NCBI GenBank assembly: GCA_964291415.2
Contig: OZ219918.1
Coordinates: 1,024,001-1,088,000, forward strand
Direction: 5' to 3'
Source of the DNA: Alphaproteobacteria bacterium
Lineage (GTDB): Bacteria > Pseudomonadota > Alphaproteobacteria > SP197
DNA length: 64,000 nt
The translations under genes and the position numbers were made by a program. The notes under the pieces are model-generated. The model was given only the letters and a program-made list of their open reading frames with translations, was not told where the DNA came from and did not search any database. Positions 40,299 to 60,476 of the stretch are shown piece after piece. Position 1 is the stretch's first letter. Every line of letters starts with the position of its first letter.

Positions 40299-40303
40299 GG
40301 TTG

Positions 40304-41050: not shown

Positions 41051-41054
41051 GGTG

Positions 41055-41744
41055 CTACTCGTCGGCCGGGATCGGACCGAAGCCTTCCTCGATCATCGCG
41101 GTTGCGCCCGAGAGTGCGCCCAGCCGCTCGCCATTCCGGAGAGCCTCGTTGAAGGGAACCTCCTCGGCCTGTTCGGCAATGGCGTAATCCACCCAGAACT
41201 GCGCCTCCTCGGGCGGGAACACGACGATGCCGTTCTCGTCGGCCACAACGGCATCCCCCGGGTTGACCACGACGCCGCCGACCGCGACGGGAACGTTGAG
41301 TGCGCCGCCGTGGGCGAGCAGCCGCGTCGTGATAGGTGAAGGCCCCCGGCACCACAACGGCAGATCCATCCGTCTGATGTCGCCGAAATCGGTGGCGCGA
41401 CCGTCGATAACGGCGCCCGCGACCCCGCGGGCCTTCGCGGCAACCGTCAGTGAACCGCCCCAGCACGCGTGACGGTCGTCCCCGCACCGGTCGATGACCA
41501 GAACATCGCCTTCCTGCACATACCCCAGAGCGTGGTGGAGCAGCGCGCAATCGGCGCCCGGGATGCGCACGGTGACGGCCGTACCGGCGATGCGGCGGTC
41601 CGGGATCACGGCCCGGATATCGGGATCGAGGAAACCGTGAAGCCGTTCATGGCCGACCGTGGCGGTCTCAACCTCTGCGAGACGCGCGGCGAGCCCGCCA
41701 TCGATCCGCTGGGGGAAGGGTCGTATGTCGAAGGTGGAGCCCAT
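41055..41744 (-). CDS. RraA/HMG-aldolase family protein
   Basis: AGTAVTV, GDVLVID, ACWGG, IDG..TD, V.VGGV.V.PGD.V.ADE.G; start 41744 or 41762. Confidence 0.88.
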   Translation of the reverse strand: MGSTFDIRPFPQRIDGGLAARLAEVETATVGHERLHGFLDPDIRAVIPDRRIAGTAVTVRIPGADCALLHHALGYVQEGDVLVIDRCGDDRHACWGGSLTVAAKARGVAGAVIDGRATDFGDIRRMDLPLWCRGPSPITTRLLAHGGALNVPVAVGGVVVNPGDAVVADENGIVVFPPEEAQFWVDYAIAEQAEEVPFNEALRNGERLGALSGATAMIEEGFGPIPADE

Positions 41745-41794
41745 CGCCTGACTCTCCCCCACAGCCGGGGAGCAGCGTCCGCGCGCGAGTGCGG

Positions 41795-42907
41795 CTAGAG
41801 GCCCGACTTGACGTCGTCGAAGACACGAATCACCGCCTCGCGTGTATCGGGCGCCATTTCCTCGATAAAGGTCCCCTTGGCCATCATGGCATCGGGATCA
41901 GCGATGCCGAGTTCATCGAGCGTCTCCCGAGCCACGAGCGGGAAGGCCTGCGTGTTGGAATGCCCGTAGCCGTACATCTCGATCAGATTCTTGCCGGCCT
42001 CCGGAGAGGTCCATGCATTGACGAAGTCGTACGCGAGGTCCTGCATCGCCGGATCGCCGTTGCCGAGAGCCAGGCAGCACACCCAGGTGAGGATGCCTTC
42101 CTGCGGGTCCATGAACGACACGTCGAGACCCTGCGCCTTCAGGTTCTTCGCCGATCCGTTCCAGGAGTATGAGAGCACGATCTCGCCCGCTGCCAGAGCC
42201 TGCTCGATCTGGGTCGGATCGGTCCAGTAGAACCGCAGGTTGGCGTGAATGCGCCGCATGATGTCGGCGGCCTCGGCGATTTCGTTCTCGTCCATGGTGA
42301 AGGGGTGGACGCCCAGGATGAGCCCGCAGACCTGCGCGAAGGCGTCGGCGGAGTCGAAGAACGCCATCTTCCCGGCGTAGCGCTCGTCGAGGAAGAGGTT
42401 GTAGGAGTTCTCCATGGGCTCGACCAGGTCCGAGCGATAGAGGATGGACGAATTCCCCCAGTCGACCGGCACGCCAATGACGTCGTCTGCGTAATGCAGC
42501 GCCTTGATCTCGCGCATGCTGGGGAAGATGTCGTTCCAATGCGTGAGGCGGCTCGTGTCCACCGGCCGGATGACGCCAGCGTCTGCCCAGCGGCCGATGC
42601 TGCTGGTGCAGGGGTGTGTCACGTCGGTCGTGTAGCCGCCGCGCAGCTTCTGCAGGGCTTCTTCGAGTTCGCCGAACATGCTGAATTGCGGTGAGGCGCC
42701 ATGCTGGTCGACATAGGCCTGGTGGAACTCCGGCAATTCGTATCCGGACCATTCGAAGACCTGAAGATCGCCGCCCGCGGCGCGTGCCGGCCGCATCGCT
42801 GCGGGGAGCATGAATGTGGAAAGGCCCGCCGAGGCGGCAAGCGACGCGAAGCGGCGCCGGTCGAGTTTGAAGTCGACGCCCCGGGGCGATGTGATCATCG
42901 TCGACAT
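41795..42907 (-). CDS. Tat-exported PotD/PotF-family ABC solute-binding protein
   Basis: DRRRF Tat signal with ARA cleavage site, FEWSGYE, PVDWG, YSWN, P.EG...W. Confidence 0.85.
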   Translation of the reverse strand: MSTMITSPRGVDFKLDRRRFASLAASAGLSTFMLPAAMRPARAAGGDLQVFEWSGYELPEFHQAYVDQHGASPQFSMFGELEEALQKLRGGYTTDVTHPCTSSIGRWADAGVIRPVDTSRLTHWNDIFPSMREIKALHYADDVIGVPVDWGNSSILYRSDLVEPMENSYNLFLDERYAGKMAFFDSADAFAQVCGLILGVHPFTMDENEIAEAADIMRRIHANLRFYWTDPTQIEQALAAGEIVLSYSWNGSAKNLKAQGLDVSFMDPQEGILTWVCCLALGNGDPAMQDLAYDFVNAWTSPEAGKNLIEMYGYGHSNTQAFPLVARETLDELGIADPDAMMAKGTFIEEMAPDTREAVIRVFDDVKSGL

Positions 42908-42995
42908 GTCTGAATCCTCCCTTGGATTGTTCCTTCTCCATGGCATTTTGAGGCAAGTTCGGGCGATTGGATAGCCCTTCTCCTGCATGACCGAT

Positions 42996-43115
42996 GCGTT
43001 CTTGTGTGTACGCTCATCATCGCTGCGAAGTTGAACGACCTCGCCCCCAAGGCCTGGCTTGCCGACGTCCCTGGCCGGGGATGCCGTAGAGCCTTCTGAA
43101 CGAGCTCCCGCCTCG
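42996..43115 (+). mobile_element. IS66-family transposase C-terminal remnant
   Basis: From 43010 reads TLIIAAKLNDLAPKAWLADV, with AFL just upstream and LNELP just downstream in shifted frames; resembles the IS66 C-terminal SLI.TAKLN..DP.AWLADVL...L.ELLP pattern. Confidence 0.7.
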
Positions 43116-43291
43116 GCGTCGGCAGGTTTGTCGTCAGCAGACATTCCCCCAACGGCTGTTCCCGGGGTTCTCCAGGGGTGAGGTTTCTCGACAGGATATG
43201 CGGCCTGCGTTGGGCGACTCCCTCCCATTTGGGGTATCGCGTTCCCGCCGTGTGTGTTTGGATCGGCAAATGAAGAGATCGGGAGCCGGAT

Positions 43292-44767
43292 ATGTCGAAT
43301 CAATCCCCCCCATCTGACGGGGACAAGTACGAAGTGCGGCCGGATTCCGCCGTGACCGCGGACTTGCGGATGTCGCGCGGACAAATGCTCGAACTTGGAC
43401 AAAAGGCGCTCGAACTCGTGGTGGAACGGATCGAGGGCTTGCCCGGAGAGAATGCCTGGGAAGGCGATTTCCGGCAGGTTCTCGAAGATCAACTGAAGGA
43501 GGATCCGCCCGAGGAGGGGCGGCCTGCAGACGAGATCGCCGAAAGGGCGGCGCGGGAAATCCTGTCGTACTCGACACGCCTGGATCACCCGCGCTGCTTC
43601 GGTTTCGTCCCGTCATCGCCCACCTGGCCCGGTATCGTGGCCGACTTCATGGCGAGCGGCTACCACGTCAACCAGTGCACCTGGCTGGTGGCGAGCGGCC
43701 CGAGCCAGGTGGAGCTGGTCGTCATCGACTGGTTCAGGCGCTGGATCGGCTATCCGGAGAACGCCGGCGGGCTCTTCACCAGCGGCGGTTCGGCGGCAAG
43801 CGTCGATGCCTTCGTGGCAGCGCGCGAGGCAGCGGGCCACCCCGAGCGCGCCACAGTTTACATGAGTGACCAGAGCCACAGCGCGCTTGCCCGCGCGGCG
43901 ATGATCGTGGGCGTCCGGCGCGAGTGCATCCGCATGGTCCCGAGCGACGCGCAGTTCCGCATGGAGATGGACGCGCTCACCCGGGCCGTGGCCGAGGATC
44001 GCGATGCCGGGCTCGCTCCTGTCGCGGTGGCCGCAAACGCGGGCACGGTGGGCACAGGCGCAGTTGACCGGTTGGAGGAACTGGCCAATTTCTGCGAGGC
44101 GGAAGGTCTCTGGCTGCATGTCGATGCCGCCTACGGCGGCTTCGCGTTGGTGACGGAGCGAGGCAAACGGCTCCTGCGCGGGATCGAACGAGCCGATTCG
44201 GTCGGGCTTGATGCGCACAAGTGGTTCTTCCAGCCCTACGAAGCGGGTTGCCTGCTGGTGAAGGACGAGAGCACGCTCAAGGATGCCTTCGCGGTGCGGC
44301 CCGATATCCTTCAGGATACGGTATGGGGGGCGAATCACCCCAACTTCTCGGATCTTGGCCTGCAACTGAGCCGCTCGGCCCGCGCTCTGAAGGTCTGGAT
44401 GTCGGTCCAGACATTCGGGATGGCGGCGTTCCGGCACGCAGTCGCCAAGGGAATGGACCTCGCCGCGCGAGCGGAGACCTACATTCGCGAGAGTCCGGTT
44501 CTGGAGAACATGAACCCGGTCACGCTGGGCATCGTGTGTTTCCGGGTCAATCCGGCCGACGATGATCTCGACGAGACAATGCTCGACAAGGTCAACAGGA
44601 CTGTGCTCGCCCGCCTGTTCTGGGACGACCCCGCGTTCGTGTCGTCGACGATGCTGCACGGAACATTCGCGCTCAGGATGTGCATCATCAACCACACCAC
44701 GACCTGGGATGACGTGCGCGAGACTCTGGCGGCTGTCGAGCGCTTCGGGCGCGACGCGCTCGCATGA
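43292..44767 (+). CDS. Group II PLP-dependent amino acid decarboxylase
   Basis: HPR.FGFVP, FTSGGS, HVDAAYGG, DAHKW (PLP lysine), SR..RALK.W. Confidence 0.9.
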   Translation: MSNQSPPSDGDKYEVRPDSAVTADLRMSRGQMLELGQKALELVVERIEGLPGENAWEGDFRQVLEDQLKEDPPEEGRPADEIAERAAREILSYSTRLDHPRCFGFVPSSPTWPGIVADFMASGYHVNQCTWLVASGPSQVELVVIDWFRRWIGYPENAGGLFTSGGSAASVDAFVAAREAAGHPERATVYMSDQSHSALARAAMIVGVRRECIRMVPSDAQFRMEMDALTRAVAEDRDAGLAPVAVAANAGTVGTGAVDRLEELANFCEAEGLWLHVDAAYGGFALVTERGKRLLRGIERADSVGLDAHKWFFQPYEAGCLLVKDESTLKDAFAVRPDILQDTVWGANHPNFSDLGLQLSRSARALKVWMSVQTFGMAAFRHAVAKGMDLAARAETYIRESPVLENMNPVTLGIVCFRVNPADDDLDETMLDKVNRTVLARLFWDDPAFVSSTMLHGTFALRMCIINHTTTWDDVRETLAAVERFGRDALA

Positions 44768-44863
44768 CGGCACGGTCCTCTGCCTTCCCGGCGTCCGCCG
44801 TTCTGGCGCAGAAACGACCCGCCCGGTATCCCTGCGTCCCGCCGCTCCGCACCGTCGGAGTTC

Positions 44864-45309
44864 ATGATATCCAAGCTTCTTTTCGCGTTTCCCGCCTTGG
44901 TTGCCGTATCGTGCGGCGCGCATGCGTCGGGCCCCTAATGTTCGAGGCCGAATGTCGCGAGGACTATGCGACCGTGGGAGAAATCACGGCCGGTCGCCTT
45001 CACCGCGACGTCGACATCGTCGCAAGCGACGGTGTCCCCTTCGTGGGAGGGCACGGCGGCCAGCTGTCCGGTATCGTGATCGTCCGGCAGGGAACCGGAA
45101 ACGACTTCCGTCTGGACGCTCTGATGGAACTGCGGTTGCCGGGTGCGGCCCTCTACGGTCAGGCGCGCCGTGAAGAAGGCGAGCTGCACCAGGGTGAGGG
45201 GAAGCCGAGGATGATCGGAGCCGAGGACGAGTTCGCGGGCGTCGAGGCCACCTGCACTGACTCGGTCCTGCAAGGGGAGACGCTTCTCATCGTCCACGAC
45301 TGTGTGTAA
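44864..45309 (+). pseudogene. Exported hypothetical protein, frameshifted just after its signal peptide
   Basis: GGAG RBS then MISKLLFAFPALVAVSCGAHA-SGP-stop; the coding-like frame continues MFEAECRED... to 45309 after a 1-nt shift in the GGGCCCC run near 44935. Confidence 0.55.
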
Positions 45310-45546
45310 CGCCGGCCAGGCCGCTGACTGGCCAGGATGCCGCATGTTCGAGGATAACGGTCGTCTCGCGACACCTCGGGGCAGCCGTCAGAGGGTGGCC
45401 CCGGGTCGGACGGGTGAACCGATACATGTGACATCGCCGGGTCCAGTACACGGCAACCGGTGTCCTCGGCGACATCGCGTATGACGCTTGCCTGGAGAGG
45501 GCTGTGCGCTCGGGAAAGGGAAGGGGCATCCACTCCGTCGCCTGCG

Positions 45547-46314
45547 ATGAAACAGACTCAATCATACATTGTCGGCGCGACCCCTCGTAGCGGAAGCACG
45601 CTCCTGTGCGACCTTCTCTCCGATACCGCAGCGGCGGGACAACCCCACTCGTACTTCCGGCGTGAAGACATCTCCTGGTGGGCGCATCAATTCGGCGTGT
45701 CGACCGCAGACTGGCGCACCGAGCACGAGTTCGATCGAGCCTACCTGGAAGCCGTGCGGCGGCAGGGGACCGGTGGAACCCGGGTCTTTGGCCTGCGGTT
45801 GATGTGGGAGAGCGTTGCCGGTCTGTCGACAAGGCTCGACTCCTTCTACCCGAATCTGGACAGCGACAAAGCTCGATTCAAGGCAGCATTCGGAGCACAG
45901 GTCTACGTGCATCTCTCCCGCGACGACAAGGTTGCGCAAGCTGTCTCGCTCCTCAGAGCGGAACAAACCGGTCTGTGGCATGTCAATGCCGACGGCACCG
46001 AACGCGAGCGGCTCAAGGCGGGCGAGGTACCTGTCTATAGTGGCCGGGATCTTTCGCGGCTTGTGACACAGATGGAGGAGCACGACAGGTGCTGGACCCG
46101 GTGGTTTCATGAGCAGGACATCGAGCCTCTCCGCATCACCTATGAGAGGCTTTCCGCGGAACCGCAGGCAACGTTGGCGACCGTGTTGTCGGCCCTCGGC
46201 ATGGACTCCGTGCTTGCGGAAGCCGCTGAGCCCAGAACCGCGAAACTGGCGGATCGCGTGAGCCGCGAGTGGGCAACGCGCTTCAGGGCGGAGAGTCGCA
46301 GTGCGCCCACATGA
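45547..46314 (+). CDS. Stf0-family sulfotransferase
   Basis: ATPRSGSTLLC (5'-PSB loop), FGLRLMW, L.R.DKVAQAVS..RA.QTG.W, ITYE.L. Confidence 0.88.
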   Translation: MKQTQSYIVGATPRSGSTLLCDLLSDTAAAGQPHSYFRREDISWWAHQFGVSTADWRTEHEFDRAYLEAVRRQGTGGTRVFGLRLMWESVAGLSTRLDSFYPNLDSDKARFKAAFGAQVYVHLSRDDKVAQAVSLLRAEQTGLWHVNADGTERERLKAGEVPVYSGRDLSRLVTQMEEHDRCWTRWFHEQDIEPLRITYERLSAEPQATLATVLSALGMDSVLAEAAEPRTAKLADRVSREWATRFRAESRSAPT

Positions 46315-46554: not shown

Positions 46555-47424
46555 TCAGGCGGGATGCGCGAAATGTTCTTCGATCCAGTCGACGAAAGTC
46601 CGCGCCGCGGGAGTCTCTTCATGTGTGGCCGGAGGCAGGAGGAAATAGCCTTCGGGCATTGCCACACTGTGATCGTACGGACGTTCAAGCCGGCCTTCCG
46701 CGAGCAGCCCGGTCGCCAGCATGTCATGGGCCATCGAGAGGCCGCCGGCGTTCAGGGCTGCGGTCATTGCGACCACGTAGGTTGAAGCGAGATTGACGCT
46801 CCTTTCCGGCGGCAGGGCATGTCCCTGGTCCGCGAGCCATGCGTTCCAGTTCGTCGTCACGCCCGTGCAATCGAAAAGCGGCGCCGTTTCCCACTCGCGG
46901 AACGCCGGTCTCGCGTGTGGCGCACAGACCGGATAGGCCCTTTCCGCCGCGAGCGGCCTCGTAGGCTGCGGCATCAGCGCAGGACGTCCGAAACGGATTT
47001 CAACTTCTGCCACGCCCTCCGCGTTCTGGGGATCCCAGATCGGCGTCGTCAGGTTGAGCGTCAGCCAGGGGTGGGCCTCAAGGAGGGTGCCGAGCCGAGG
47101 TGCGAGCCAGAAGGTCGAGAAGGCAAGGTTGCACCTTACCCTCAACTGCCGCCCGCGATCGCCGGTCAGCGCGCGGGTGCCGGCGGCGAGAACCTCGAAC
47201 GCCTCCTGGACAATGGGGAGGTAGTTCGATCCGCCTTCCGTCAACTGAAGCGCCCGGGTCTTGCGGATGAACAGCGTCAGGCCGACAGCGTCTTCCAGGC
47301 TGCGCACATGCTGGGACACGGCCGACTGGGTGAGGTTCAGTTCAGCCGCGGCCTGCGTGAAGGAAAGATGCCGGGCGGCGGCCTCGAACGCGCGCAGCCA
47401 TGTGAGCGGAGGCAGATTTGTCAT
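46555..47424 (-). CDS. LysR-family regulator, GcvA-like
   Basis: LPPL.WLRAFEAAARHLSFTQAA.EL.LTQSAVSQH. Confidence 0.93.
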   Translation of the reverse strand: MTNLPPLTWLRAFEAAARHLSFTQAAAELNLTQSAVSQHVRSLEDAVGLTLFIRKTRALQLTEGGSNYLPIVQEAFEVLAAGTRALTGDRGRQLRVRCNLAFSTFWLAPRLGTLLEAHPWLTLNLTTPIWDPQNAEGVAEVEIRFGRPALMPQPTRPLAAERAYPVCAPHARPAFREWETAPLFDCTGVTTNWNAWLADQGHALPPERSVNLASTYVVAMTAALNAGGLSMAHDMLATGLLAEGRLERPYDHSVAMPEGYFLLPPATHEETPAARTFVDWIEEHFAHPA

Positions 47425-47453
47425 GGATGGCAAACTCCATGCACAACAGGTGC

Positions 47454-47468
47454 ATAAGCATTCCTAAT
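47454..47468. promoter_or_regulatory. Putative LysR recognition site (T-N11-A)
   Basis: ATAA-gcattcc-TAAT, an AT-rich dyad in the divergent region just upstream of the LysR gene. Confidence 0.55.
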
Positions 47469-47738
47469 GCTAGTGCCGCGAATCCATCGTTTGTCAACAT
47501 CGAACCCTCTGCTCAGGGTTCTCCGGGAGCCCCGACTGCAGGTCGATTGCGATGGATGCTGGACCCCGGGAACCGGAACCGTGGAAAGGTCGCGTCGATC
47601 CAGCCGCCGCCATCCGCCGGACTGCATGTCTCGGCATGCACGGTTCTGCTGCCAACCGCTTCAGCCTGTCGGTGAACCGGGAGGGAACCAGGCGCGTGAC
47701 CGACCCCACGGCCATTCCCGATGAGGAGGGGTTCCGTC

Positions 47739-48785
47739 ATGCCCACTGAGATGAAGAAACCGGGGCCTGCGCCGACCAACGCCGCCTCAAGCGGCGTGAC
47801 GCTTGACAGGAAGACGCTGAAGTCGCTCGCACGGCGCGCCGACGGTCCGGGCCTCGTCTATCTGGCCCAGTGGGGTGCCGGACTGCTCGTCACGGGTTGC
47901 CTCGTTTGGCTCGCCCTCGGCACCTATTGGCTGTGGCCGGCGATGTTCGTCCATGGCGTGCTGTTGACCGTTCCGGTCTATGCGATCAGCCACGAAACGG
48001 CGCACGGCACGGCCTTTCGCAGCACATGGCTCAACGAAACGGTGCTCTGGATCAGTTCGCTGATCTACATGGAGGAGCCGCTGCACCGGCGCTACACCCA
48101 CGCCAACCATCACACCTTCACCTGGCATGTCGGCAAGGACAGCCAGATGCCGTTCGATACACCGATGACGCTTGGCGGCTGGCTGGTTGAAGTCTCCGGG
48201 TTGGGTCTGTTGCGCTTTCACGTGACCGTCCTGGCGCGCCTGGCGAGCGGTCGCTACTCCGACATGATGAGGACGGTGGCTCCGGTCGACGAACTTCGGA
48301 AGATGAGGCGCAATGCCTGGATCTTTCTCGCCCTTTACGCCGCCATCGGCGTGGCGGTGGCGTCGGGAGTCCACGGGCTGCTGTGGTTCCTTGTCCTGCC
48401 ACGTCTCCTGGGAGCGCCGGTCATGCTCCTGTTCACGCTGATCCAGCACGTCGAGATGGGGGAGAACACGCCATCCATTCCGGACAGCACACGGTCCTTC
48501 AGGACCGGCTGGCTGGGCCGGTTCCTCTACATGAACATGAACAATCACGTGGAACATCACCTCTACACGCAGGTGCCGTTCTTCGCGCTGCCGGCCTTGC
48601 GCGACGCGGTGGCCTCGCAGGTTCCCGCTCCGGACCCCGGGTTCTTCCGAACCAACCAGGAGGTGTTCGCGGTCGTCCTGCGCCGGTCACTGGGTCTTTC
48701 GACCAGGTCGCCATCGATCCGCCAGGCGCCGCACATGATCACGACCGGCGGCCCCAGGCGGCATATCGCGCAACGGACCATGTAG
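47739..48785 (+). CDS. Membrane di-iron oxygenase, fatty acid desaturase superfamily (MocD-like)
   Basis: His boxes HETAH, HANHH and HVEHH, plus QH motif and TM helices. Confidence 0.85.
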   Translation: MPTEMKKPGPAPTNAASSGVTLDRKTLKSLARRADGPGLVYLAQWGAGLLVTGCLVWLALGTYWLWPAMFVHGVLLTVPVYAISHETAHGTAFRSTWLNETVLWISSLIYMEEPLHRRYTHANHHTFTWHVGKDSQMPFDTPMTLGGWLVEVSGLGLLRFHVTVLARLASGRYSDMMRTVAPVDELRKMRRNAWIFLALYAAIGVAVASGVHGLLWFLVLPRLLGAPVMLLFTLIQHVEMGENTPSIPDSTRSFRTGWLGRFLYMNMNNHVEHHLYTQVPFFALPALRDAVASQVPAPDPGFFRTNQEVFAVVLRRSLGLSTRSPSIRQAPHMITTGGPRRHIAQRTM

Positions 48786-49624
48786 TGCGCCGGATCTACA
48801 CCTTCGGCGGCCAGCCGGCCACGCGGAACCTGACGGTGGCGGATCTCAGGGCCAACAAGTCTGCGGGCATCAAGATGACGCAGGTCTCGGCGCTGAACGG
48901 CGAAGAGGCGGCGGCCTGCGAGTCGGTGGGCATCGATCTCATCACCATCGCCGACGTCGATATCAGGGAGGTGAGGGCGGCAGCACCAACCACCTTCGTC
49001 ACCGGCAGCCAGACCATGGTGCAGTACGTTACCGAGGATGAAGCGCTCGGCGCCGCAATTCGTTGTGCCGAACAGGGCGCAGACGCGATCTACACGCCGC
49101 GCGGCCTGAAGACTGTCGAGCGGCTGGCCGGCGAAGGGTTGTGTGTCCAGGGCCATCTGGGTCTGGTGCCTCGGCTGTCGACACGCGTGGGCGGGCTGAG
49201 GATCATTGGCAGGACGGCAGACGAAGCCATGCGCCTGTGGGAGGACTTTCGCCGTCTGGAAGAAGCCGGCGCGGTTGCCGCCGAGGTCGAATGCGTTGCC
49301 GTCGAGGCCCTCGTCGAGATCGGCAAGCGCAGCGGCCTCGTGACCCATTCAATCGGCGCCGGCTCCGGCGGCGACATCATCTTTTCGTTCATGGAGGATA
49401 TCTGCGGCGACGTGGAGAACCCGCCGCGCCACGCCAGGGCGTGGGCCGACATGCTCTCATTGCGCCGCGCCATGTCCGCTGAGCGTCTCAAGGGTCTGAC
49501 CGGCTTTCGTGACGAGGTCAGGGCAGGGACGTTTCCGCATGAACCCCATCAAGTCTCCATGAAGGCGGGAGAGCACGAGAAGTTCCGCGAAGCGCTGGAC
49601 ATGTGGCAGCCGGTGCACCGGTGA
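48785..49624 (+). CDS. Divergent PanB-like hydroxymethyltransferase family protein
   Basis: TVADLR..K, GHLGLVP, GGLR..GRTA.EA, LEEAGA...EVECV, SIGAG, F..EV..G.FP; GTG start overlaps the upstream TAG. Confidence 0.78.
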   Translation: MRRIYTFGGQPATRNLTVADLRANKSAGIKMTQVSALNGEEAAACESVGIDLITIADVDIREVRAAAPTTFVTGSQTMVQYVTEDEALGAAIRCAEQGADAIYTPRGLKTVERLAGEGLCVQGHLGLVPRLSTRVGGLRIIGRTADEAMRLWEDFRRLEEAGAVAAEVECVAVEALVEIGKRSGLVTHSIGAGSGGDIIFSFMEDICGDVENPPRHARAWADMLSLRRAMSAERLKGLTGFRDEVRAGTFPHEPHQVSMKAGEHEKFREALDMWQPVHR

Positions 49625-50919
49625 ACGACGCAGCCGACTACACGAAGCCCTTTGCCGCGAAGCCCCGGCCGCTGACGCTGGAACAGGCGGCTTGGATCAC
49701 GCCGCCCGCTCAGGCGACCGATACCGAAGGCATGATCGACGTGCCGCGCATGCGCGCCTGGCGCCGGAACCGCCTGCGCGAGCAGATCGCCGCCCACGGT
49801 CTCGACGCCGTCGTCCTCGTCGAACCATTGGCGATCCGCTACGCCGCCGGCGTACGCAACTGCACGCTGTTTCAGATGCACATCCAGGCGGGCTATCTCT
49901 TCGTGCCCGCCGACGGCCCTGTCATCTACTTCGACAGCCAGCCGGGTCGCGAGACCGGCCGGCAACTCGAGACAATCGACGAAGTTCGCGACGATCTCGT
50001 GCCGCTCTCATACATGTTTTCGGGCTACCGGCAACAGGACATGGCGCGCAAGTGGGCAGAGCAAATGGGTGATCTGATCGCAACGCACTGCGGCAGCGGC
50101 GCCAGGGTCGGGATCGATCGCGCCGGCTTCCACGCGGAACAGGCCCTCGCCGATCAAGGTTTCGCCATGACCGATGCGGCACCGGTTCTGGCCCATGCCC
50201 GCAAGATCAAGTGTCCGGAAGAAGTCCTCGCCATGAACCTCGCCCTGGCGACGGCGGAGGACGGCATGAGCCGAATGCGCGAGGCCTTGCGCAACGGCGT
50301 CTCGGAGCAGGAACTCTGGGCGCTGATGTGGCGTGCGCTGATCGAAAAGGGCGGCGAATGGCTCGACTACCGCCTGCTTGCCTCGGGCGAACGGACCAAT
50401 CCGTGGCAGCAGGAGGCATCGAGCCGGACGATCCGGGCGGGCGATCTTGTCGTGTTCGACTGCGGGCTGGTCGGTCCGTTCAGCTACGGCGCGGACGTCA
50501 GCCGCGCCCTCCGGTGCGGACCGGGGCGGCCGAGCGACTACCAGAAGACACTCTACACGCTCGCCTGGAACGAGGTGATGCACAACACGCGGTTACTACG
50601 GCCCGGAACATCGTTCCGGGACTTCATGGCCGACCGTTTTCTCCAGGAGCCCGGCTTCGGCGACCAGCCCTATCCCTGTGTGGCGCATGGACTGGGCATG
50701 GCCGACGAATGGCCCGTGATTCTCCATTCCCCGGAACACCCGGATCACTACGACGGGGAATTCGAAGCCGGCATGGTGATCTGTGTCGAGAGCTATGTCG
50801 GCGAAGTCGGCGGCCTCGAAGGAGTCAAGCTGGAGGACCAGGTCCTCATCACCGAATCGGGACCGGTCGTGCTGTCGCGCTACCCCTTCGAAGAGACGCT
50901 TCTTCCCCATGAAATCTGA
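49621..50919 (+). CDS. M24 (Xaa-Pro peptidase fold) protein, DddP-like
   Basis: RLLASG.RTNPW.QE, FD.G...Y.AD.SR, HGLG..DEWP, CVESY.G, VKLEDQV. Confidence 0.85.
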   Translation: MNDAADYTKPFAAKPRPLTLEQAAWITPPAQATDTEGMIDVPRMRAWRRNRLREQIAAHGLDAVVLVEPLAIRYAAGVRNCTLFQMHIQAGYLFVPADGPVIYFDSQPGRETGRQLETIDEVRDDLVPLSYMFSGYRQQDMARKWAEQMGDLIATHCGSGARVGIDRAGFHAEQALADQGFAMTDAAPVLAHARKIKCPEEVLAMNLALATAEDGMSRMREALRNGVSEQELWALMWRALIEKGGEWLDYRLLASGERTNPWQQEASSRTIRAGDLVVFDCGLVGPFSYGADVSRALRCGPGRPSDYQKTLYTLAWNEVMHNTRLLRPGTSFRDFMADRFLQEPGFGDQPYPCVAHGLGMADEWPVILHSPEHPDHYDGEFEAGMVICVESYVGEVGGLEGVKLEDQVLITESGPVVLSRYPFEETLLPHEI

Positions 50920-50934
50920 GCGAGGAAACGGGAC

Positions 50935-51243
50935 ATGGGCACATGGATCGAGGTCTGCGCGGCGGGAGACATCGACGAAGAGGATCTCATCCGCTGGGAT
51001 CATGATGGCCGGTCATTCGCGATCTACAACACGCAGAAGGGATTCTTCGCCACCGACGGATACTGCACTCACGAGCAGCAGCACCTCGCGGACGGCCTCG
51101 TTACCGGTACCGTCATCGAATGCCCGCTGCATCAGGGGAGGTTCGACATCGTCACGGGCAAGGCGCTTCGTCCGCCCGTCCGCATCGCCCTGGAGACCTA
51201 TCCCGTCAAGGTCGAAGACGGCATCGTCTTCATCCGGCTCTGA
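50935..51243 (+). CDS. MocE-family Rieske [2Fe-2S] ferredoxin
   Basis: DIDEED.IR.DH.GR.FAIY, CTH...CPLH; GAGG RBS. Confidence 0.9.
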   Translation: MGTWIEVCAAGDIDEEDLIRWDHDGRSFAIYNTQKGFFATDGYCTHEQQHLADGLVTGTVIECPLHQGRFDIVTGKALRPPVRIALETYPVKVEDGIVFIRL

Positions 51244-51280
51244 TAAGGATCCGGCTCCTCGGTCTGCCGGCGATGGTCTC
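51162..51280 (+). repeat. Direct repeat copy 1 (ferredoxin 3' end plus downstream sequence)
   Basis: 51162-51243 matches 53073-53154 at 76 of 82 nt (manual count); similarity continues about 35 nt past the stop. Confidence 0.93.
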
Positions 51281-51471
51281 AAGGCGCGCGGTCTCACGGC
51301 CTCGGTTCCCGGGCTCGACAGCGCGCGCCCGTCGCTCTTGAGCCACCACATTCATCGGGTGCCCGCGGGGCATTTGCGCCCGAAGGGCCTGCCTCGCGGA
51401 AGCGATCAAAGCGACGTCAGTTCCGCGTACAATCGCGATTGCCATTCAAGAAACTCAAGTGGGTGTTCAAG

Positions 51472-51620
51472 ATGAAGCGAGCATTGATCTTTGATCTTGA
51501 TGGAACGTTGCTGACGTCCGAAAAGATCGTGCATTGCGAAACGCTCTCATCCGTGTTGGCCTGCGCGAAACTGGGATTTGTGATCGTCATCGCCACATCC
51601 CGACCTCATCGCGGCTTCCG
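51472..51620 (+). pseudogene. Cof-like HAD hydrolase N-terminal fragment
   Basis: MKRALIFDLDGTLL...IVIATSRP, after which similarity is lost; locally AT-richer. Confidence 0.7.
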
Positions 51621-51924
51621 GCACAAGCATGGCGATGATGGCGCGGGACCACCAAGCAACGCGCCGCGGCACGCGTGTGAACGCCACCGCGACGGCTGAC
51701 AACACCAGCAGAAACGGTTGAAATTCGAGGGGAACTCCCCTAGAGTCGCACTCACGCAGGGCCATGCCCGCGTCTATCAGGGGGAACCCGATGACCACCA
51801 TTCCACGCTACTGTTCCATCACTTGCACCGGCGACACCTTCCTCCTCGATGGGGCGATGGCGAATGAAGGGCACGGACGCGCAGGTCGGGCGAAGTATGC
51901 TCGCATCATGGCACGGAATGTCCC

Positions 51925-52278
51925 GTGAGCCCCGTCGTCTACATCGAAACATCGGTCGTCAGCTATCTGACGGCCTGGCCGTCGCGGGACATGCTCGTCT
52001 CGGCCTATCAGGTGGCGACGCGCGAATGGTGGACCGCGGCGGCGAAGAGGTACGACCTTCTCGCGGCGGCGCTTGTCGACCAGGGTGCAGTGCCGCACCA
52101 CGCCGCCGGCGACGCGGTGCACATCGCCACCGCCGCCTGCCATGCCGTTCACTATCTGGTGAGCTGGAATTTCCGGCACATTGCCAATGCCGCCATGAAC
52201 CCGCACATCGCCCGTGTCTGCCGGCAGGAAGGGTATGAACTGCCGTTCATCTGCACGCCAACTCAACTCATGGAGTAG
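51925..52278 (+). pseudogene. PIN/VapC-like nuclease with an apparent in-frame internal deletion
   Basis: VYIETSVVSYL.A.PSRD...TREWW and DAVHIA.A......YLVSWN.RHIANA...LPFICTP.QL; the central segment usual in this family appears missing. Confidence 0.7.
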
Positions 52279-52282
52279 AACC

Positions 52283-52486
52283 GTGTCGACGCTCAAGGCT
52301 GATTCAGTCATCGCCGAACTGTGGGCGGTACGGGACGCCAACTCGGCCCGTTTCAACCACGACCCTGGCGCCATATGCCGCGATCTTCGATCCCTGGAGG
52401 GGTCCTTCGAACGCGCCGCCACCCACTACGCCTCGCTGGACATCGGTGACGATGTGGACAGCGAGGACCACGGGACCGGCCCGTGA
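52283..52486 (+). CDS. Small partner protein of the PIN gene (putative antitoxin-like)
   Basis: D.VI.EL.AVRD...ARFNHD..AI..DLR pattern typical of ORFs following this PIN subfamily. Confidence 0.5.
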   Translation: MSTLKADSVIAELWAVRDANSARFNHDPGAICRDLRSLEGSFERAATHYASLDIGDDVDSEDHGTGP

Positions 52487-52529
52487 TACCGGCAGCCTCC
52501 GGGGCGGCACCTTCAGGGGAGTCCGCTCC

Positions 52530-53045
52530 ATGACTGACAGGGCCATCTGGACCGCATCAGACCTGCGCTCGGTGGCCATCGCGCTCAACGGCTCGTCCCG
52601 AGGCGCCGTTCCTGCACTGGCGCGATGCCTCAACGTCGACCAGCGTCTGGTTCGCAGGTGGACCAGCGGCAGTATTCCCGTGCCTGCAGAAGTTGTGCAC
52701 AGGATCGAGGCGATCACGGGAGTTTCCACGCCGCCCGAGACAACCTGGCGCCGCGACGAGTGGTTGACCTGCGAAGGTCAGTCAAGGACCGGCGAACAGA
52801 GGCGCAAGTACATCGTTCACACATGGCCGCCACGGTTCCGCTGCCGCGCGGTCGCGGTCGACAGCGATACCGGCCTGCCGCTGAAAGCAGAACAGCCGGC
52901 CGATGTCGACATCGGACTGACCTATGCGGCTTCGCCCGATACTGTGCTCTCCGAATTCGACTGGATCGATCGCCCGCCCTCCGGTGAAGTTCTGGAGCGT
53001 CTTCTTGAAGCCGCCTCGGATGCCATCGACGGCGTGGTCGTCTGA
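52530..53045 (+). CDS. Hypothetical protein with N-terminal HTH-like region
   Basis: GGGGAG RBS; LAR.L.VD.R.VRRW.SG..PVP; C-terminal YIVH..PPRF...F.WID.PP region. Confidence 0.65.
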   Translation: MTDRAIWTASDLRSVAIALNGSSRGAVPALARCLNVDQRLVRRWTSGSIPVPAEVVHRIEAITGVSTPPETTWRRDEWLTCEGQSRTGEQRRKYIVHTWPPRFRCRAVAVDSDTGLPLKAEQPADVDIGLTYAASPDTVLSEFDWIDRPPSGEVLERLLEAASDAIDGVVV

Positions 53046-53072
53046 CAGGCGCCGGTCCGTCAATGCTCACTT

Positions 53073-53187
53073 GGCGCTCCGTCCGCCCGTCCGCGTCGCC
53101 CTGGGCACCTATCCCGTCAAGGTCGAAGACGGAATCGTCTTCATCCGGATCTGAAACGGATCCGGCCAGTCTGCCGGCGACAATCTC
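53073..53187 (+). repeat. Direct repeat copy 2 (orphan ferredoxin C-terminus)
   Basis: Encodes ALRPPVRVALGTYPVKVEDGIVFIRI-stop versus ALRPPVRIALETYPVKVEDGIVFIRL-stop in copy 1. Confidence 0.93.
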
Positions 53188-53387
53188 GGGGTGCCCGAGC
53201 GTGGATGAAGGAGCATCCTTCGGTTCAAGGGGGCGAGGTTGATGGTGCCGATGCGTCTCAGGCAATCGAAGAACGTGTGGCCGTCGAATTCGGATGTCCC
53301 GGAAATCGATTCTCTGGACAGCTCCTGATAGCACATGTCGCGAGCCGGCCAGGAACCGGTTGGGCATACTGGTCGAGGTCGGAGCGG

Positions 53388-55355
53388 TCAGGCGCCGATC
53401 GCCATGCCGGCCTTCAGCCCGTCGAGCACCGCCTCCTCAGCCGTGCGCGGCGAGAGCGCATCGCCAATCACATGCACCTCTCCCGGCCACCCGGCCAGTT
53501 CACCGGCAAGCGCCGCATCGCTCGACGTACCCTGGCACAACACCAGAGTCTCGACCTCGTCGCAGATGATCGGGTCGTCGGTGACCGTATGCTGCAGGTA
53601 GACGGTATCGCGGTCGGCGCCGAACAGCCGGGCGTAGGGGATGATCTCGACGCCAAGCCTGGAAATCTGGCCGATCCAGTGGTCGCGCACCGCTTCCTGG
53701 ATGTTCTGGCCCGGCACCATTCCGGTGACTGCCAGGCGCACGCGGCAGCCGTCCCGCGCCAGCTTCTCGGCCAGACCCAGACCGATCCAGTCGTTCTTCC
53801 AGTCCGCGACCAGCACGGAACCGCCGACATTGGCCTCTCCCCGGATGACCGACCAGGATTCGACCACATGGGCTTCGTCCTCGCCCTCGACCGCGGGCCG
53901 GTAGGGCTGCCCGCCTGTGGCGACGACTGCGGCGTCGGGGCCGGCCTTGCGTATCGTGTCTGCCGTGACAGCAACGCCGAGCGCGACTCGCGCTCCCGCC
54001 AGCTCCATCTCGCGGGCAAGATTGGTCACGATGCCGCCAAATTCGGCGCGTCCGGGAAGTGACTGGGCCAGCAGGGCCTGCCCGCCGAGCCTGCCGGACC
54101 GTTCGTAGAGGGTCACGTCGTGGCCGCGCTCGGCGAGCACCGCGGCGGCCTTCATGCCGGCCGGACCGCCGCCCACGACCCAGACGGTCCGGCGCCGGCG
54201 TGCGGGTGTCTTGACGTGGCCGAACGCGAGTTCGCGACCGGTCTCGGGGTGCTGGATGCAGGAGACGGCGTGATACTGCAACCGATGGCCAATGCACGCC
54301 TGATTGCAGGCAATGCAGCTGCGGATGTCGTCGACTCGTCCGGCCTCGGCTTTCGCGGCGAACGCTGGATCGGCGATCATGCCACGCACCAGGCCGACCA
54401 TGTCGGCCTGGCCGCGGGCGACAATGTCCTCGGCGAGATGGGGCTGGTTGATTCGTCCGGCGACGAGCACCGGAAGCGACAGATGCTGCCTCAGCGCTCC
54501 TGCGCAGGCTGCGACGTGCCCGGGCTCGATCGCCATGGGCGGGACGACATCGACCCAGCCTCGCGCGGTCCGTGTGTTGCCGCCGATGACGTTGACATAG
54601 TCGACGAGGCCCCGGTCCTCCAGGGTCTGGCAGATCTCCAGCACCTCGCCGGACTCCATGGCGCCGGGCGTGGCGTCCGCGTCGCTGATCCTGACACCGA
54701 GTATCGGGTCGCGGCCGATGCTGGCCCGGGCGGCCTCGAGGATCTCGACAAGGAACCGCATGCGATTCTCGAGACTTCCACCGTAGGCGTCGTCGCGCCG
54801 GTTGATCCGGGGATTGAGAAACTGGGCGATCAGATAGCCCATGCTCGCCAGAATCTCGACGCCGTCGAGACCTCCCTCGACGATGTGGCCGGCGGCCCGC
54901 GCATAGGAGTCGGCCAGTTCGGCGAGCAGGGCCGGTGTCGCCGGTGTCGGCATGAGACTGTAGCGTTCGAACGGCACCGCAGACGACGAGATCGCCGGAC
55001 GGCGCGCACCGTCCAGCGTGGCCCTGATGGCTGCCCCCGGGTGAAAGAGCTGACCCAGGATCGCGCAGCCGTGGCCGTGGACGGCGTCTGCCAGGCGCCG
55101 GAAGCCCGGCACGATGCCCGGCTCACCTGCCAGCAGGTACCCGGCGGCGAGATCGAAGCTGGGATGCATCGACATGCCTTCGGCAATGATCATGCCGGCG
55201 CCGCCCCGGGCGCGCGCCTCGTGATAGGCGATGAGGGCGTCCGAGACCCGGCCCCGGTCGCCGAGCGACGTGCCATGGGCCGGAAAGAACAGCCGATTCC
55301 GGATCCGGTGGCCTCGAATCTCGATCGGCTGGAACAGATGCGGGAAGACCGACAT
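53388..55355 (-). CDS. NADH:flavin oxidoreductase (OYE barrel + 4Fe-4S + FAD domain; StcD/DgcA-like)
   Basis: LFQP..I....IRNR, QLFH.G, GYL..QFL.P..N.R.D.YGGSLENR, CIACNQAC, VVGGGPAGM. Confidence 0.9.
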   Translation of the reverse strand: MSVFPHLFQPIEIRGHRIRNRLFFPAHGTSLGDRGRVSDALIAYHEARARGGAGMIIAEGMSMHPSFDLAAGYLLAGEPGIVPGFRRLADAVHGHGCAILGQLFHPGAAIRATLDGARRPAISSSAVPFERYSLMPTPATPALLAELADSYARAAGHIVEGGLDGVEILASMGYLIAQFLNPRINRRDDAYGGSLENRMRFLVEILEAARASIGRDPILGVRISDADATPGAMESGEVLEICQTLEDRGLVDYVNVIGGNTRTARGWVDVVPPMAIEPGHVAACAGALRQHLSLPVLVAGRINQPHLAEDIVARGQADMVGLVRGMIADPAFAAKAEAGRVDDIRSCIACNQACIGHRLQYHAVSCIQHPETGRELAFGHVKTPARRRRTVWVVGGGPAGMKAAAVLAERGHDVTLYERSGRLGGQALLAQSLPGRAEFGGIVTNLAREMELAGARVALGVAVTADTIRKAGPDAAVVATGGQPYRPAVEGEDEAHVVESWSVIRGEANVGGSVLVADWKNDWIGLGLAEKLARDGCRVRLAVTGMVPGQNIQEAVRDHWIGQISRLGVEIIPYARLFGADRDTVYLQHTVTDDPIICDEVETLVLCQGTSSDAALAGELAGWPGEVHVIGDALSPRTAEEAVLDGLKAGMAIGA

Positions 55356-55463
55356 GGCCGATGTCCGTGACGTTCGGGCCGTGAAGTTGACGGAATGAGG
55401 CTTGATGCCACGATCCATGCCTGTTGTACACTCGCCGGTGAACTCGAATCCTGGATGCCCCGC

Positions 55464-56628
55464 CATGGGTCACCGAGTTGTCAATCAATGCTCGGCCTGG
55501 AGCGATGTGGAAGCGATTGCGGGCGCGAACGCCCTGGACGCCCTGGATGGGCCGGTCGAGAAGGCGTCGGCACTGCCCAATGTCTGCTACACGAGCGCGG
55601 CGTGGCAGAAGCTCGAGTTCGAGCGCCTCTTCGCCCGAAGCTGGTTTGTCGCAGGCTTCCTCCATGATGTGCCGGAGCCTGGTGACGCCATGCCGGTCAA
55701 GGCTTTCGGGATGCCGTTGCTCGTGTTGCGCGACCTGGGTGGCGTGGTCCGCGTCTTCCATAACGTCTGCCGCTACCGGCGCACGGTTCTGGTGACCGGG
55801 AAGTGCTCGGGGCTCCGGGAATTCACGAGTCCCTGTCGCGGCTGGACCTACGATCTTGACGGTTCGCTGAGGCGCGGCCCGTCCCTTGATGGCGGCGGCC
55901 CTCACGACGACCCGCCCGGCCTCGTGCCGGTCCGTTCGGACGTGTGGCAGCACTGGATCTTCGTCAACCTCGATGGCAAGGCGCAGTCCCTGGAAGACTA
56001 TCTGGCACCGGCGGCAGACCTCGTCCGGGGCTACGATCTTGGGGCAGCGCGCCACGCAGGGACGGTGCATTTCGAGGTTGCGGCCAACTGGAAGCTGGCG
56101 CTGGAGAACTACATCGAGCCTTACCACGTCTTCGCGGCCCATCCGAGGCTGCATGACTTCGTTCCGATGTCGGAACGGATGCCGAGCCGAATCGACCGCC
56201 ACGTGATGTGGAACCGCTATCTCTTCAGGGCCTCGGAGCCTGGACGGGGCGAAGGGCTGCCCTACTTCCCGAACCTGTCACCCGAGGCCGCCCGCCAGGG
56301 CGTCTGGTTCATCCTCCCCACGGCCTTTGGCGTCGAGGTCTATCCGGATCACGTGGCGAGCTTTCATGTCGCGCCGGTCGCACCGGACCGATGCCGAGAG
56401 CGCATCGACGTCTACCTCGTCGGCGAGGCTGCCACCTCGACGGACTGGGCCGAGGGACGTCAGGCCGTGCTCGACATGTGGAACGAACTCAACCACGAGG
56501 ACATAAGCCTCATCGAGAGCATGCAGAGGGGCCGGATGTCGCCGACCTACGATGGCGGCAGCCTGTCGACCTACTGGGACGAAGCTCCCCTCCATCTCAG
56601 TCGCATGGTCGTTGAGGGCATGCGCTGA
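55464..56628 (+). CDS. Rieske-type oxygenase alpha subunit (choline monooxygenase-like) with non-canonical Rieske motif
   Basis: ANWKLALENYIEPYH....HP and ED...IE.MQ.G catalytic-domain motifs; Rieske region reads CRYR...SPCRGW; start uncertain (55402-55507). Confidence 0.8.
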
Positions 56629-56952
56629 GCCTCATCACTCCTTGCCGCCGCCAGGGGGTTCGGGTATCGAATGACGCTTGGGATCGACTCCGAAGACCCG
56701 GGACAGGGTTTTCGATGCGCCGCCAGCCTCGAAACCCTCTGCCGCCCGACGCGGACGGGTATCGGTCGCAATGATCGGGACGACGGGTATGATTGATGCC
56801 GCCCTGGTGGAGCAGGCTCAGTCTTGCGGGGCCAGCGGCACGGGGTGCGCATAGCCGGTCGAAACGGACGTCGCATTCGGGTGGCCGAGGCGTCCCCGTC
56901 ACCGGACGAACCCGATCGCAACGCGGTCATCCGGGCCCGACAAGGGGGGAAC

Positions 56953-58584: not shown

Positions 58585-58612
58585 TCGAAGGCCCTAACGT
58601 CCGGATCGCCGG

Positions 58613-59536: not shown

Positions 59537-59537
59537 C

Positions 59538-60473: not shown

Positions 60474-60476
60474 ACC

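Follow-up and report, generated by a model that had tools for sequence, protein, structure and literature searches.

A conserved marine operon joining a MocD-like oxygenase to a remodelled PanB paralog, with a possible role in oxidative demethylation

The closest described relatives of the system reported here come from quite different pathways. MocD, MocE and MocF make up a ferredoxin-dependent oxygenase in a model for rhizopine catabolism that Bahar et al. are said to have proposed in 1998. PanB is a folate-dependent hydroxymethyl transferase, and enzymes with the DAO/FAO_M/GCV_T domain combination are of the folate-binding dimethylglycine or sarcosine dehydrogenase type. DddP, a DMSP (dimethylsulfoniopropionate) lyase of the M24 family, is a metalloenzyme whose metal ligands are Asp295, Asp297, Asp307, His371, Glu406 and Glu421, and in which the invariant Tyr366 and Asp377 lie above the metal site as candidate bases (PMC4108388). 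Relatives of the oxygenase and ferredoxin, of PanB and of DddP meet in one operon, which with its divergent LysR gene occupies positions 46555-51243 of a 64-kb stretch (hereafter the window, to which all positions refer) of contig OZ219918.1 from an alphaproteobacterium. The first-pass annotation had described these five genes, with tight junctions and a divergent LysR, and had judged that no inositol genes were nearby; we recover all five with small corrections only, and the annotation of the window contains no inositol genes. The MocD TAG stop and the GTG start of the PanB-like gene (PanBL) have one base in common, PanBL and the M24 gene overlap by 4 nt (GTGA), and a 15-nt spacer separates M24 from MocE. 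This is a real, widely conserved marine operon. What sets it apart from the known systems is its PanB-fold partner, its DddP-like enzyme and its regulator; the oxygenase and ferredoxin it has in common with the rhizobial Moc system. The proposal that the system is undescribed holds for the full-text literature outside subscription journals, where we found no account of the cluster or of the PanB-like paralog.

Relatives were sought in collections holding one genome per species. MocD gave 87 relatives and PanBL 233, the best 80 being kept in each case; the counts for MocD loci rest on the 64 of 80 with enough flanking sequence, and M24 gave 59 relatives in 58 loci, 50 of them with enough flank. 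MocE is found near MocD in 54/64 loci, and in 53/64 the operon is divergent from an ortholog of the LysR (identity 43-91%). A class II aldolase gene (NF005689) stands directly upstream of MocD, between LysR and MocD, in 51/64 loci, and genes near MocD further include PanBL (36/64), M24 (29/64) and FA_hydroxylase (9/64). The commonest order is aldolase-MocD-PanBL-M24-MocE (21 loci); aldolase-MocD-MocE occurs in 14 loci and aldolase-MocD-PanBL-MocE in seven. A neighbourhood search for co-occurrence had been recommended with the original proposal, which lack of synteny would have undone; the families are clearly syntenic, in an operon conserved under an orthologous LysR. The proposed four-gene system needs redrawing all the same. 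The operon in the window is syntenic, but as a reduced form of a five-gene consensus from which the aldolase has been lost, and although PanBL and M24 recur, both are optional inserts in an aldolase-MocD-MocE core rather than obligate members of a quartet. No conserved neighbours were found outside the operon in the annotated loci, save some FA_hydroxylase and a few transporter genes. Because the outer flanks vary, and transposases border some of the copies, the operon looks like a self-contained module. In the closest named relative, on one contig of a metagenome-assembled genome (loci L105 and L001), LysR-MocD is separated by about 18 kb from PanBL-M24-MocE, perhaps through an insertion or an assembly artefact.

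MocD belongs to the FA_desaturase family (PF00487, 97 bits), with about four hydrophobic segments and three His boxes (HETAH, HANHH and HVEHH, starting at residues 85, 121 and 270); ten His residues are invariant among 24 orthologs. MocE reaches 134.3 bits against TIGR02377, just short of the cut-off of 136.15, and 58.3 bits against the Rieske domain, and it has the CTH...CPLH (CxH...CxxH) motif. There is no MocF-type reductase gene in the window and no match to PF14759 (Reductase_C) in the genome, where the best MocF-like match has 30.5% identity and is encoded at a distance of about 530 kb. Since a MocF-type reductase gene follows MocE on its 3' side at four of 80 marine loci (L110, Hoeflea sp. 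TYP-13, among them), we assign the oxygenase to the three-component MocDEF kind.

The rhizobial counterparts are operons of MocD-MocE-MocF-PanBL under a LacI regulator, found on a plasmid of R. etli IE4803 (L184) and on S. meliloti pSymB (L185). Their PanBL is 36% identical to that of the window and the same motifs are missing from it. Plasmid records yield 285 MocD-like and 279 rhizobial PanBL matches, with nearly equal counts per genus, and we found no paper on the function of this LacI-MocD-MocE-reductase-PanBL operon, which is present in about 280 Rhizobium/Sinorhizobium plasmid records. The pSymB copy adjoins capsule and sialic-acid-type genes. In both systems the operon encodes a membrane oxygenase of the FA_desaturase type, in which three His boxes are present, together with a Rieske ferredoxin resembling MocE and a PanB-like protein. 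The window operon differs in its LysR/GcvA-type regulator and in having neither reductase nor inositol genes, and the marine operon adds the M24 enzyme and, in the consensus, the class II aldolase. One could read the operon in the window as a rhizopine-type O-demethylase for a methylated cyclitol, given that its MocE is 61% identical to an R. etli MocE-like protein and that the MocD-MocE(-MocF)-PanBL association also occurs on rhizobial plasmids. We consider this extremely unlikely: MocD is only 31-32% identical to the rhizobial MocD-like proteins, the regulator is a GcvA-type LysR and not LacI, neither the window nor the annotated marine loci contain inositol dehydrogenase, IolE-type or sugar transporter genes, and the partners are instead M24, BBOX-like and GbcA-like enzymes and BCCT transporters. 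The earlier view that the pathway is one other than rhizopine catabolism is borne out by the distance between the MocD sequences and by the absence of inositol genes.

The PanBL family is the most interesting part of the operon. The protein matches PF02548 at 102.6 bits (cut-off 28.7), yet only over profile positions 68-258 of 259, and it falls under both NCBIfam cut-offs for PanB (TIGR00222, 77.4 against 207.55; NF001452, 86.8 against 272). A canonical PanB (310.7 bits) is encoded on another contig of the genome, and canonical PanB and PanBL occur together in all six genomes tested (this one and five others, two of them SAR11), so that PanBL is always a second copy. The SAR11 copy was considered as the true PanB of its genomes and rejected, both SAR11 genomes tested holding canonical PanB too. 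The AlphaFold2 (AF2) model of PanBL (predicted local distance difference test score, pLDDT, 90.4) is closest to the PanB structure 1o66 (Z 24.8, root-mean-square deviation 2.8 over 200 residues, VIA-align), followed at Z ~15 by ICL/PEP-mutase folds (phosphonopyruvate hydrolase, methylisocitrate lyase and oxaloacetate decarboxylase). In E. coli PanB we take Asp45, Asp84, Lys112 and Glu114 to be the Mg and ketoacid binders. Alignment with 1m3u and with the genome's own PanB shows that Asp84, in the ADLPF region, is replaced by Ser or Gly, that YTPRG stands in place of the PanB VKxEGG motif, and that the GDS insert region has been lost or rearranged. The residues aligned with PanB His136 and Glu181 are retained (H124 and E169, invariant in 26 sequences), as are the GHLGL(V/T)P and ExV motifs. 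PanBL is a separate paralog with the PanB fold and a remodelled active site, and not PanB. The idea that PanBL is simply a PanB running backwards on a 2-oxoacid is not supported, other residues being found at the Asp84, Lys112 and Glu114 positions; the broader part of that proposal, in which PanBL handles the hydroxymethyl or other one-carbon unit produced by the oxygenase, fits the comparative data. Among 120 PanBL homologs every source label is generic 'PanB' or hypothetical, and in the ESM Atlas PanBL falls in generic PanB clusters.

The company PanBL keeps is mostly that of oxygenases. In 75 of the 80 loci a gene for one is found no more than 5 kb from PanBL, and a contig end near PanBL cuts three of the five exceptions. 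The partner is PhyH/2-oxoglutarate (2OG) in 44 loci, MocD in 20, FA_hydroxylase in 12 + 3, a GbcA-like Rieske alpha subunit in eight and a BBOX/TmpA-like (TauD) dioxygenase in two. Relatives of the GbcA/Stc2 Rieske and BBOX/TmpA 2OG enzymes replace or join MocD beside PanBL in variant operons (L018, L021-L023, L026; the BBOX/TmpA-like dioxygenase scores 280 against 400). Neither type is found in the window operon, and the GbcA-like Rieske subunit 4 kb downstream belongs to a separate unit. The link is weaker in SAR11, where the oxygenase genes lie 2.4-3.4 kb from PanBL on the opposite strand. A hydroxylated methyl group would be the sole product that such unlike oxygenase families could have in common. 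In five genomes whose MocD operon is without PanBL, a PanBL paralog is present elsewhere, and in four of the five it is beside an oxygenase: two belong to MocDEF-PanBL operons with a pair of inositol-type (GFO_IDH_MocA) dehydrogenase genes after them, one is behind an FA_hydroxylase and one behind a PhyH dioxygenase. The fifth (L198) occurs with a GMC oxidoreductase, a thiamine pyrophosphate (TPP) enzyme, an aldehyde dehydrogenase and Ldh_2, and with no oxygenase. The SAR11 copies (L037, L051 and about 40 other loci, 42-45% identity) sit in a conserved cluster with a 2-hydroxyacid dehydrogenase, PhyH, a 2OG oxygenase and a PanE-like reductase on one strand and DUF1907, a 137-aa protein and PanBL on the other, and then an HpcH aldolase, an aldehyde dehydrogenase, a TPP enzyme and a GFO_IDH_MocA dehydrogenase.

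These data bear on a different role for PanBL, as a carbon-skeleton lyase. The oxygenase would then hydroxylate a C-H bond of the solute, PanBL (with the aldolase of the consensus operon) would cleave the hydroxylated 2-oxo or hydroxy acid by a retro-aldol reaction, and M24 would remove an onium or amidino group. PanB does belong structurally among the C-C lyases of the ICL/PEP-mutase fold (the Z ~15 matches), and PanBL retains the equivalents of His136 and Glu181, but other residues stand at the positions that we take for the binders of Mg and ketoacid. In L198 and SAR11, PanBL is accompanied by genes for a TPP enzyme, aldehyde dehydrogenase, HpcH aldolase and 2-hydroxyacid/lactate dehydrogenase, and on the M382 plasmid a 2-hydroxyacid dehydrogenase and a TPP decarboxylase take PanBL's place beside MocD-MocE-M24; the weak match of MocD to GntB (arginine gamma-hydroxylase, 29.5 bits) shows that the family can hydroxylate amino-acid carbons. 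Against this stands the rhizobial MocDEF-PanBL operon, with its sugar-type LacI and inositol-type dehydrogenases. Because the rhizobial and marine operons have only the oxygenase and PanBL in common, a shared skeleton substrate is unlikely and a shared one-carbon product likely. The relatives of M24 described below adjoin folate-binding modules, which also speaks against skeleton cleavage, and overall we regard such a role, the main rival to the reading preferred below, as rather unlikely.

The M24 enzyme consists of Creatinase_N (36.8 bits) and Peptidase_M24 (96.7 bits) domains. It scores 291.2 bits against the DddP model NF043017, whose cut-off of 600 it does not reach, and 232 bits against the DddP structure 4rzy. 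Compared with DddP (4RZY, 4B28) it has the same two-domain fold and five of the six metal ligands (Asp295, Asp307, His371, Glu406 and Glu421), while the DddP-specific ligand Asp297 corresponds to Gly282. This Gly, together with the Tyr366 and Asp377 equivalents (Tyr351 and Asp362), is found in 14/14 operon orthologs, which all carry the signature D-G-D-Y-H-D-E-E at DddP positions 295/297/307/366/371/377/406/421. Unlike DddP, the enzyme sits in putative demethylation operons. Seven DddP-like M24 paralogs are encoded in the genome, none above the DddP cut-off. M24 is DddP-like and, as far as its residues tell, probably not DddP.

Operon genes accompany M24 in 44 of the 50 loci and are absent from six. 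In these six, taken together with two loci cut by contig ends, M24 is 72-76% identical and the signature at DddP positions is found in six of seven aligned copies. Four of them (L226, L228, L235 and L255) have the order LysR, MttB-family methyltransferase, DAO/FAO_M/GCV_T enzyme, M24, with the DAO/GCV_T gene directly upstream of M24 and replacing MocD-PanBL; the methyltransferase genes have no in-frame stop. In L251 the neighbours of M24 are MTHFR, a pterin-binding methyltransferase and the corrinoid activator RACo, and in L252 it adjoins a GcvT-SHMT fusion. The most telling of our results is that one M24 enzyme occurs wired either to MocD-MocE and PanBL or to classical methyl-to-folate modules. 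That the M24 orthogroup adjoins MttB-type and folate-binding GcvT enzymes suggests that the solute is a methylated onium compound and that its methyl carbon passes to tetrahydrofolate. In the genome that contains the window, tblastn finds at least 22 Rieske alpha, 20 OYE-type (old yellow enzyme) flavoprotein, 10 DAO/GCV_T-like and 8 MttB-like matches, and three of the sites with DddP-like paralogs are within 7 kb of a DAO/GCV_T-like, MttB-like or Rieske gene.

Could M24 act first? It would then split a DMSP-like onium propionate (DMSP, beta-alanine betaine or the like) into acrylate and a volatile methylated sulfide or amine, MocD-MocE would demethylate the volatile product, and PanBL would capture the formaldehyde. 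The conserved equivalents of the candidate catalytic residues Tyr366 and Asp377 would allow this, MttB (the trimethylamine methyltransferase family) precedes M24 in four loci, BCCT transporter genes are nearby, and in L235 an MDR reductase with weak similarity to acryloyl-CoA reductase/AcuI (116 against 500 and 59 against 440) lies 3' of M24. The four genes of the window, without the aldolase, would even make a complete three-step route. We think it decidedly unlikely, however, in view of the DddP score (291 against 600) and of the Gly at the DddP-specific ligand Asp297 in every operon ortholog. The neighbouring MttB-like proteins lack an in-frame stop, and pyrrolysine-free members of the MttB family are known for using quaternary amines instead of trimethylamine, which also counts against this order of events; moreover, about half of the operons have the aldolase-MocD-MocE core but no M24.

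We prefer, tentatively and with somewhat less than even confidence, a reading in which LysR induces the operon and its enzymes oxidatively demethylate a small methylated solute of onium or zwitterionic (betaine) type, the methyl carbon being passed to tetrahydrofolate. The data establish gene content, synteny, active-site signatures, the conserved operator and purifying selection; from these we infer the chemistry of every step, the order in which they occur, the part played by folate and what kind of substrate is used. MocD, with electrons from the Rieske ferredoxin MocE and a reductase encoded elsewhere, would hydroxylate a methyl group. PanBL would take the resulting hydroxymethyl or formaldehyde unit and pass it to tetrahydrofolate, filling the place held by the GcvT folate-binding domain in other demethylation operons. 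M24 would carry out a metal-dependent C-X cleavage of the solute or its product, either a DddP-type elimination or an amidine-type hydrolysis. The proposed logic, oxidative demethylation and capture of one carbon on folate, is that of the GcvT-type demethylases (dimethylglycine and sarcosine dehydrogenases, SoxA and trimethylamine N-oxide demethylase), but the window operon would use a PanB TIM barrel and not GcvT, and a membrane di-iron oxygenase with ferredoxin and not flavin.

As to the solute, a betaine-type BCCT transporter gene adjoins the operon in L016, L128 and L157 (407 against 650 for glycine betaine BCCT), TRAP transporter genes (DctP, DctM) adjoin it in L010 and L012, and the variant operons described above bring BBOX/TmpA-like and GbcA-like enzymes beside PanBL. 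The evidence points to a trimethylammonium- or dimethylsulfonium-type carboxylate without naming the compound. It neither supports nor excludes creatine/sarcosine, DMSP/dimethyl sulfide (DMS), DMSHB, beta-alanine betaine and homoserine betaine, and the same is true of betaine-lipid head groups, mycosporine-like amino acids, homarine/trigonelline and C-methyl inositols.

Several observations weigh against demethylation with capture of the methyl carbon by PanBL. PanBL is absent from 28/64 MocD operons and is therefore not essential to the oxygenase; such absence fits an accessory one-carbon role, but it fits a side branch too. The contexts of PanBL in L198 and in SAR11 would suit a 2-oxoacid C-C lyase. 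Formaldehyde and tetrahydrofolate condense spontaneously, so that a dedicated formaldehyde-capturing enzyme is not obviously needed. The BCCT association is thin (2/64 MocD loci and 3/50 M24 loci, three genera in all), and the class II aldolase of the consensus operon is left unexplained. Finally, as the genome is rich in demethylase genes, its M24 paralogs could in some cases lie near them by chance.

The regulator has HTH_1 (76.2 bits) and LysR_substrate (55.8 bits) domains, and its best NCBIfam match is GcvA (201.9 bits), the subfamily cut-off of 288 not being reached. The ratio of nonsynonymous to synonymous substitution rates (dN/dS) is 0.14-0.16 against five relatives. A dyad-like element is present in 42 of 48 orthologous LysR-proximal regions and a second conserved box in 40; the two follow each other in the order dyad, box in 36/48 regions, compared with 0/2400 shuffles, and the spacing is 18 nt in 34 of those 36. 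The box contains TTGTCA, which resembles a -35 hexamer and may be read as a -35 element. Scans for sigma-70 and terminator consensus sequences gave nothing useful in the promoter region or 3' of MocE. The first-pass annotation had proposed a GcvA-like divergent LysR with a T-N11-A operator dyad; the two domains, the orientation and the dyad itself were all found, and the dyad is conserved across the orthologous regions.

The 314-nt gap between LysR and MocD had been taken for an intergenic promoter, but it is not only that, as it also encodes a remnant of the aldolase. The region of homology (Table 1) translates to residues 16-57 of the intact L008 aldolase (tblastn, 57% identity, E 6e-12), and the remnant aligns with the L008 aldolase over 42 residues (57% identity) and with that of L028 over 45 (53%). 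The remnant consists of 45 codons, an N-terminal piece joined in frame to the C-terminal DEEG tail, and the codons of this tail are the ribosome-binding site of MocD, GAGGAGG preceding the ATG at 47739. A close relative (L104) has a similar short remnant of 32-35 aligned residues, and L106 has a longer decayed copy (residues 15-196). No ortholog of the lost aldolase was found elsewhere in the genome, where the best match is 31-32% identical. The aldolase is missing at 13/64 MocD loci, other lineages included; the aldolase-less arrangement of the window is found in 2/64, both close relatives. With the aldolase of the consensus operon deleted, the pathway here is a shortened version.

Contigs from one RNA-library run of a sponge metagenome match 47661-48023 (11 differences), 49490-49774 (7 differences, bridging the PanBL/M24 junction) and 50383-51225 (36 differences, bridging the M24/MocE junction). 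All runs were contigs, gaps in their cover carry no meaning, and we take the matches as a weak hint of expression, not as proof of transcription.

Loss of the aldolase might have broken the pathway and left a decaying relic whose remaining genes are being lost. The remnants in the window and in L104, the decayed copy in L106 and the want of a closer match than 31-32% in the genome would agree with this, as would the insertion of 2 kb immediately 3' of MocE and the dN/dS of MocD (0.12-0.28), which is the highest of the five genes in comparisons with L003 and L004 (0.22-0.28). All five genes are intact, however: against five relatives, three of them from the aldolase-less clade, they have no stops and dN/dS values of 0.07-0.28, at dS of 0.23-0.53 within that clade. 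The surviving genes are under purifying selection, and given the low dN/dS and the lack of stops the shortened operon is probably still in use. The conserved operator, the aldolase-less forms outside this lineage and, as a weak hint, the RNA-library contigs also argue against decay, which we regard as very unlikely.

Table 1. Features of the LysR gene and the divergent operon in the window.
Feature	Position	Strand	Remarks
GcvA-type LysR regulator	46555-47424	-	289 aa counted from ATG 47424; TTG 47433 is a further ORF opening
LysR operator dyad ATAAGCATTCCTAAT, T-N11-A inside	47454-47468		
Conserved box TCGTTTGTCA	47487-47496	+	18 nt past the dyad
Class II aldolase gene remnant	47552-47749	+	65-codon residual ORF, stop inside MocD start; homology 47582-47716
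MocD-like integral-membrane di-iron oxygenase, FA_desaturase family	47739-48785	+	alternative ATG 47721
PanB-like paralog (PanBL)	48785-49624	+	GTG start
DddP-like M24 metalloenzyme, creatinase-type N domain	49621-50919	+	
Rieske [2Fe-2S] ferredoxin, probably of the MocE family	50935-51243	+	

Chromosomal housekeeping genes, other catabolic units and an rRNA operon fill the rest of the 64-kb window. A stretch of about 2.07 kb (51272-53345) separates MocE from the gene that follows; the close relatives L001 and L002 lack it, and a metagenome contig omits 1896 bases there, joining 51264 to 53161. At its edges about 100 bp of the 3' end of mocE are repeated (51162-51273 and 53073-53180, 88% identical), and it contains an open reading frame (ORF; 52446-53045) that weakly matches a YdaS-type HTH (28.9 against 30 bits). 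The stretch has the look of a small insertion that brought about target duplication. Beyond it, a 692-aa OYE/FMN and FAD flavoprotein (53388-55466, minus strand) is divergent from the GbcA-like Rieske alpha subunit (55402-56628, 122.7 against 670 bits), which is followed by an Opp-type ABC transporter (56824-62422); 53388-62422 would form a separate demethylase-type unit. In L002 this unit directly adjoins MocE, and MocE could also serve the GbcA-like Rieske oxygenase. Upstream, 38688-46314 encodes, on the minus strand, a TPP enzyme, an HpcH/HpaI aldolase, an RraA-like aldolase and a PotF-like binding protein (41795-43588, with an N-terminal extension of about 260 aa that is possibly an over-long ORF call), and after them a PLP (pyridoxal phosphate) decarboxylase (43292-44767) and an Stf0-type sulfotransferase (45460-46314, PF09037, 295 bits). 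The PLP decarboxylase and the binding protein recur in L002; the other upstream neighbours are not next to the operon in the other annotated loci. A complete rRNA operon (16S, tRNA-Ile, tRNA-Ala, 23S, 5S, tRNA-Met) occupies 30518-35582.

Much carbon, nitrogen and sulfur flows through betaines and sulfonium compounds in the sea and in symbioses with animals and plants, and to our knowledge several abundant methylated osmolytes are without known catabolic genes. Many of the oxygenase, PanBL and M24 relatives come from sponge-associated and pelagic bacteria, and the operon genes are labelled everywhere 'fatty acid desaturase', 'PanB' and 'peptidase'. It is possible, if on balance doubtful, that PanBL represents a new folate-dependent family capturing hydroxymethyl or formaldehyde units for at least four unrelated oxygenase families (MocD-type, FA_hydroxylase-type, Rieske and 2OG/PhyH), with members on the symbiosis plasmids of rhizobia as well as in roseobacters, sponge symbionts and SAR11, and that the operon is the missing pathway by which some methylated solute abundant in the sea is broken down; as candidates, beta-alanine betaine, homoserine betaine and the head group of a betaine lipid can be named here only as conjecture. 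The conserved operator and LysR offer a ready biosensor for finding the substrate. Should the one-carbon role of PanBL prove true, it would be a second, non-GcvT way of coupling demethylation to folate, it would explain hundreds of mis-annotated 'second PanB' genes, those of S. meliloti pSymB and SAR11 included, and PanBL would become a marker for unknown oxidative demethylases.

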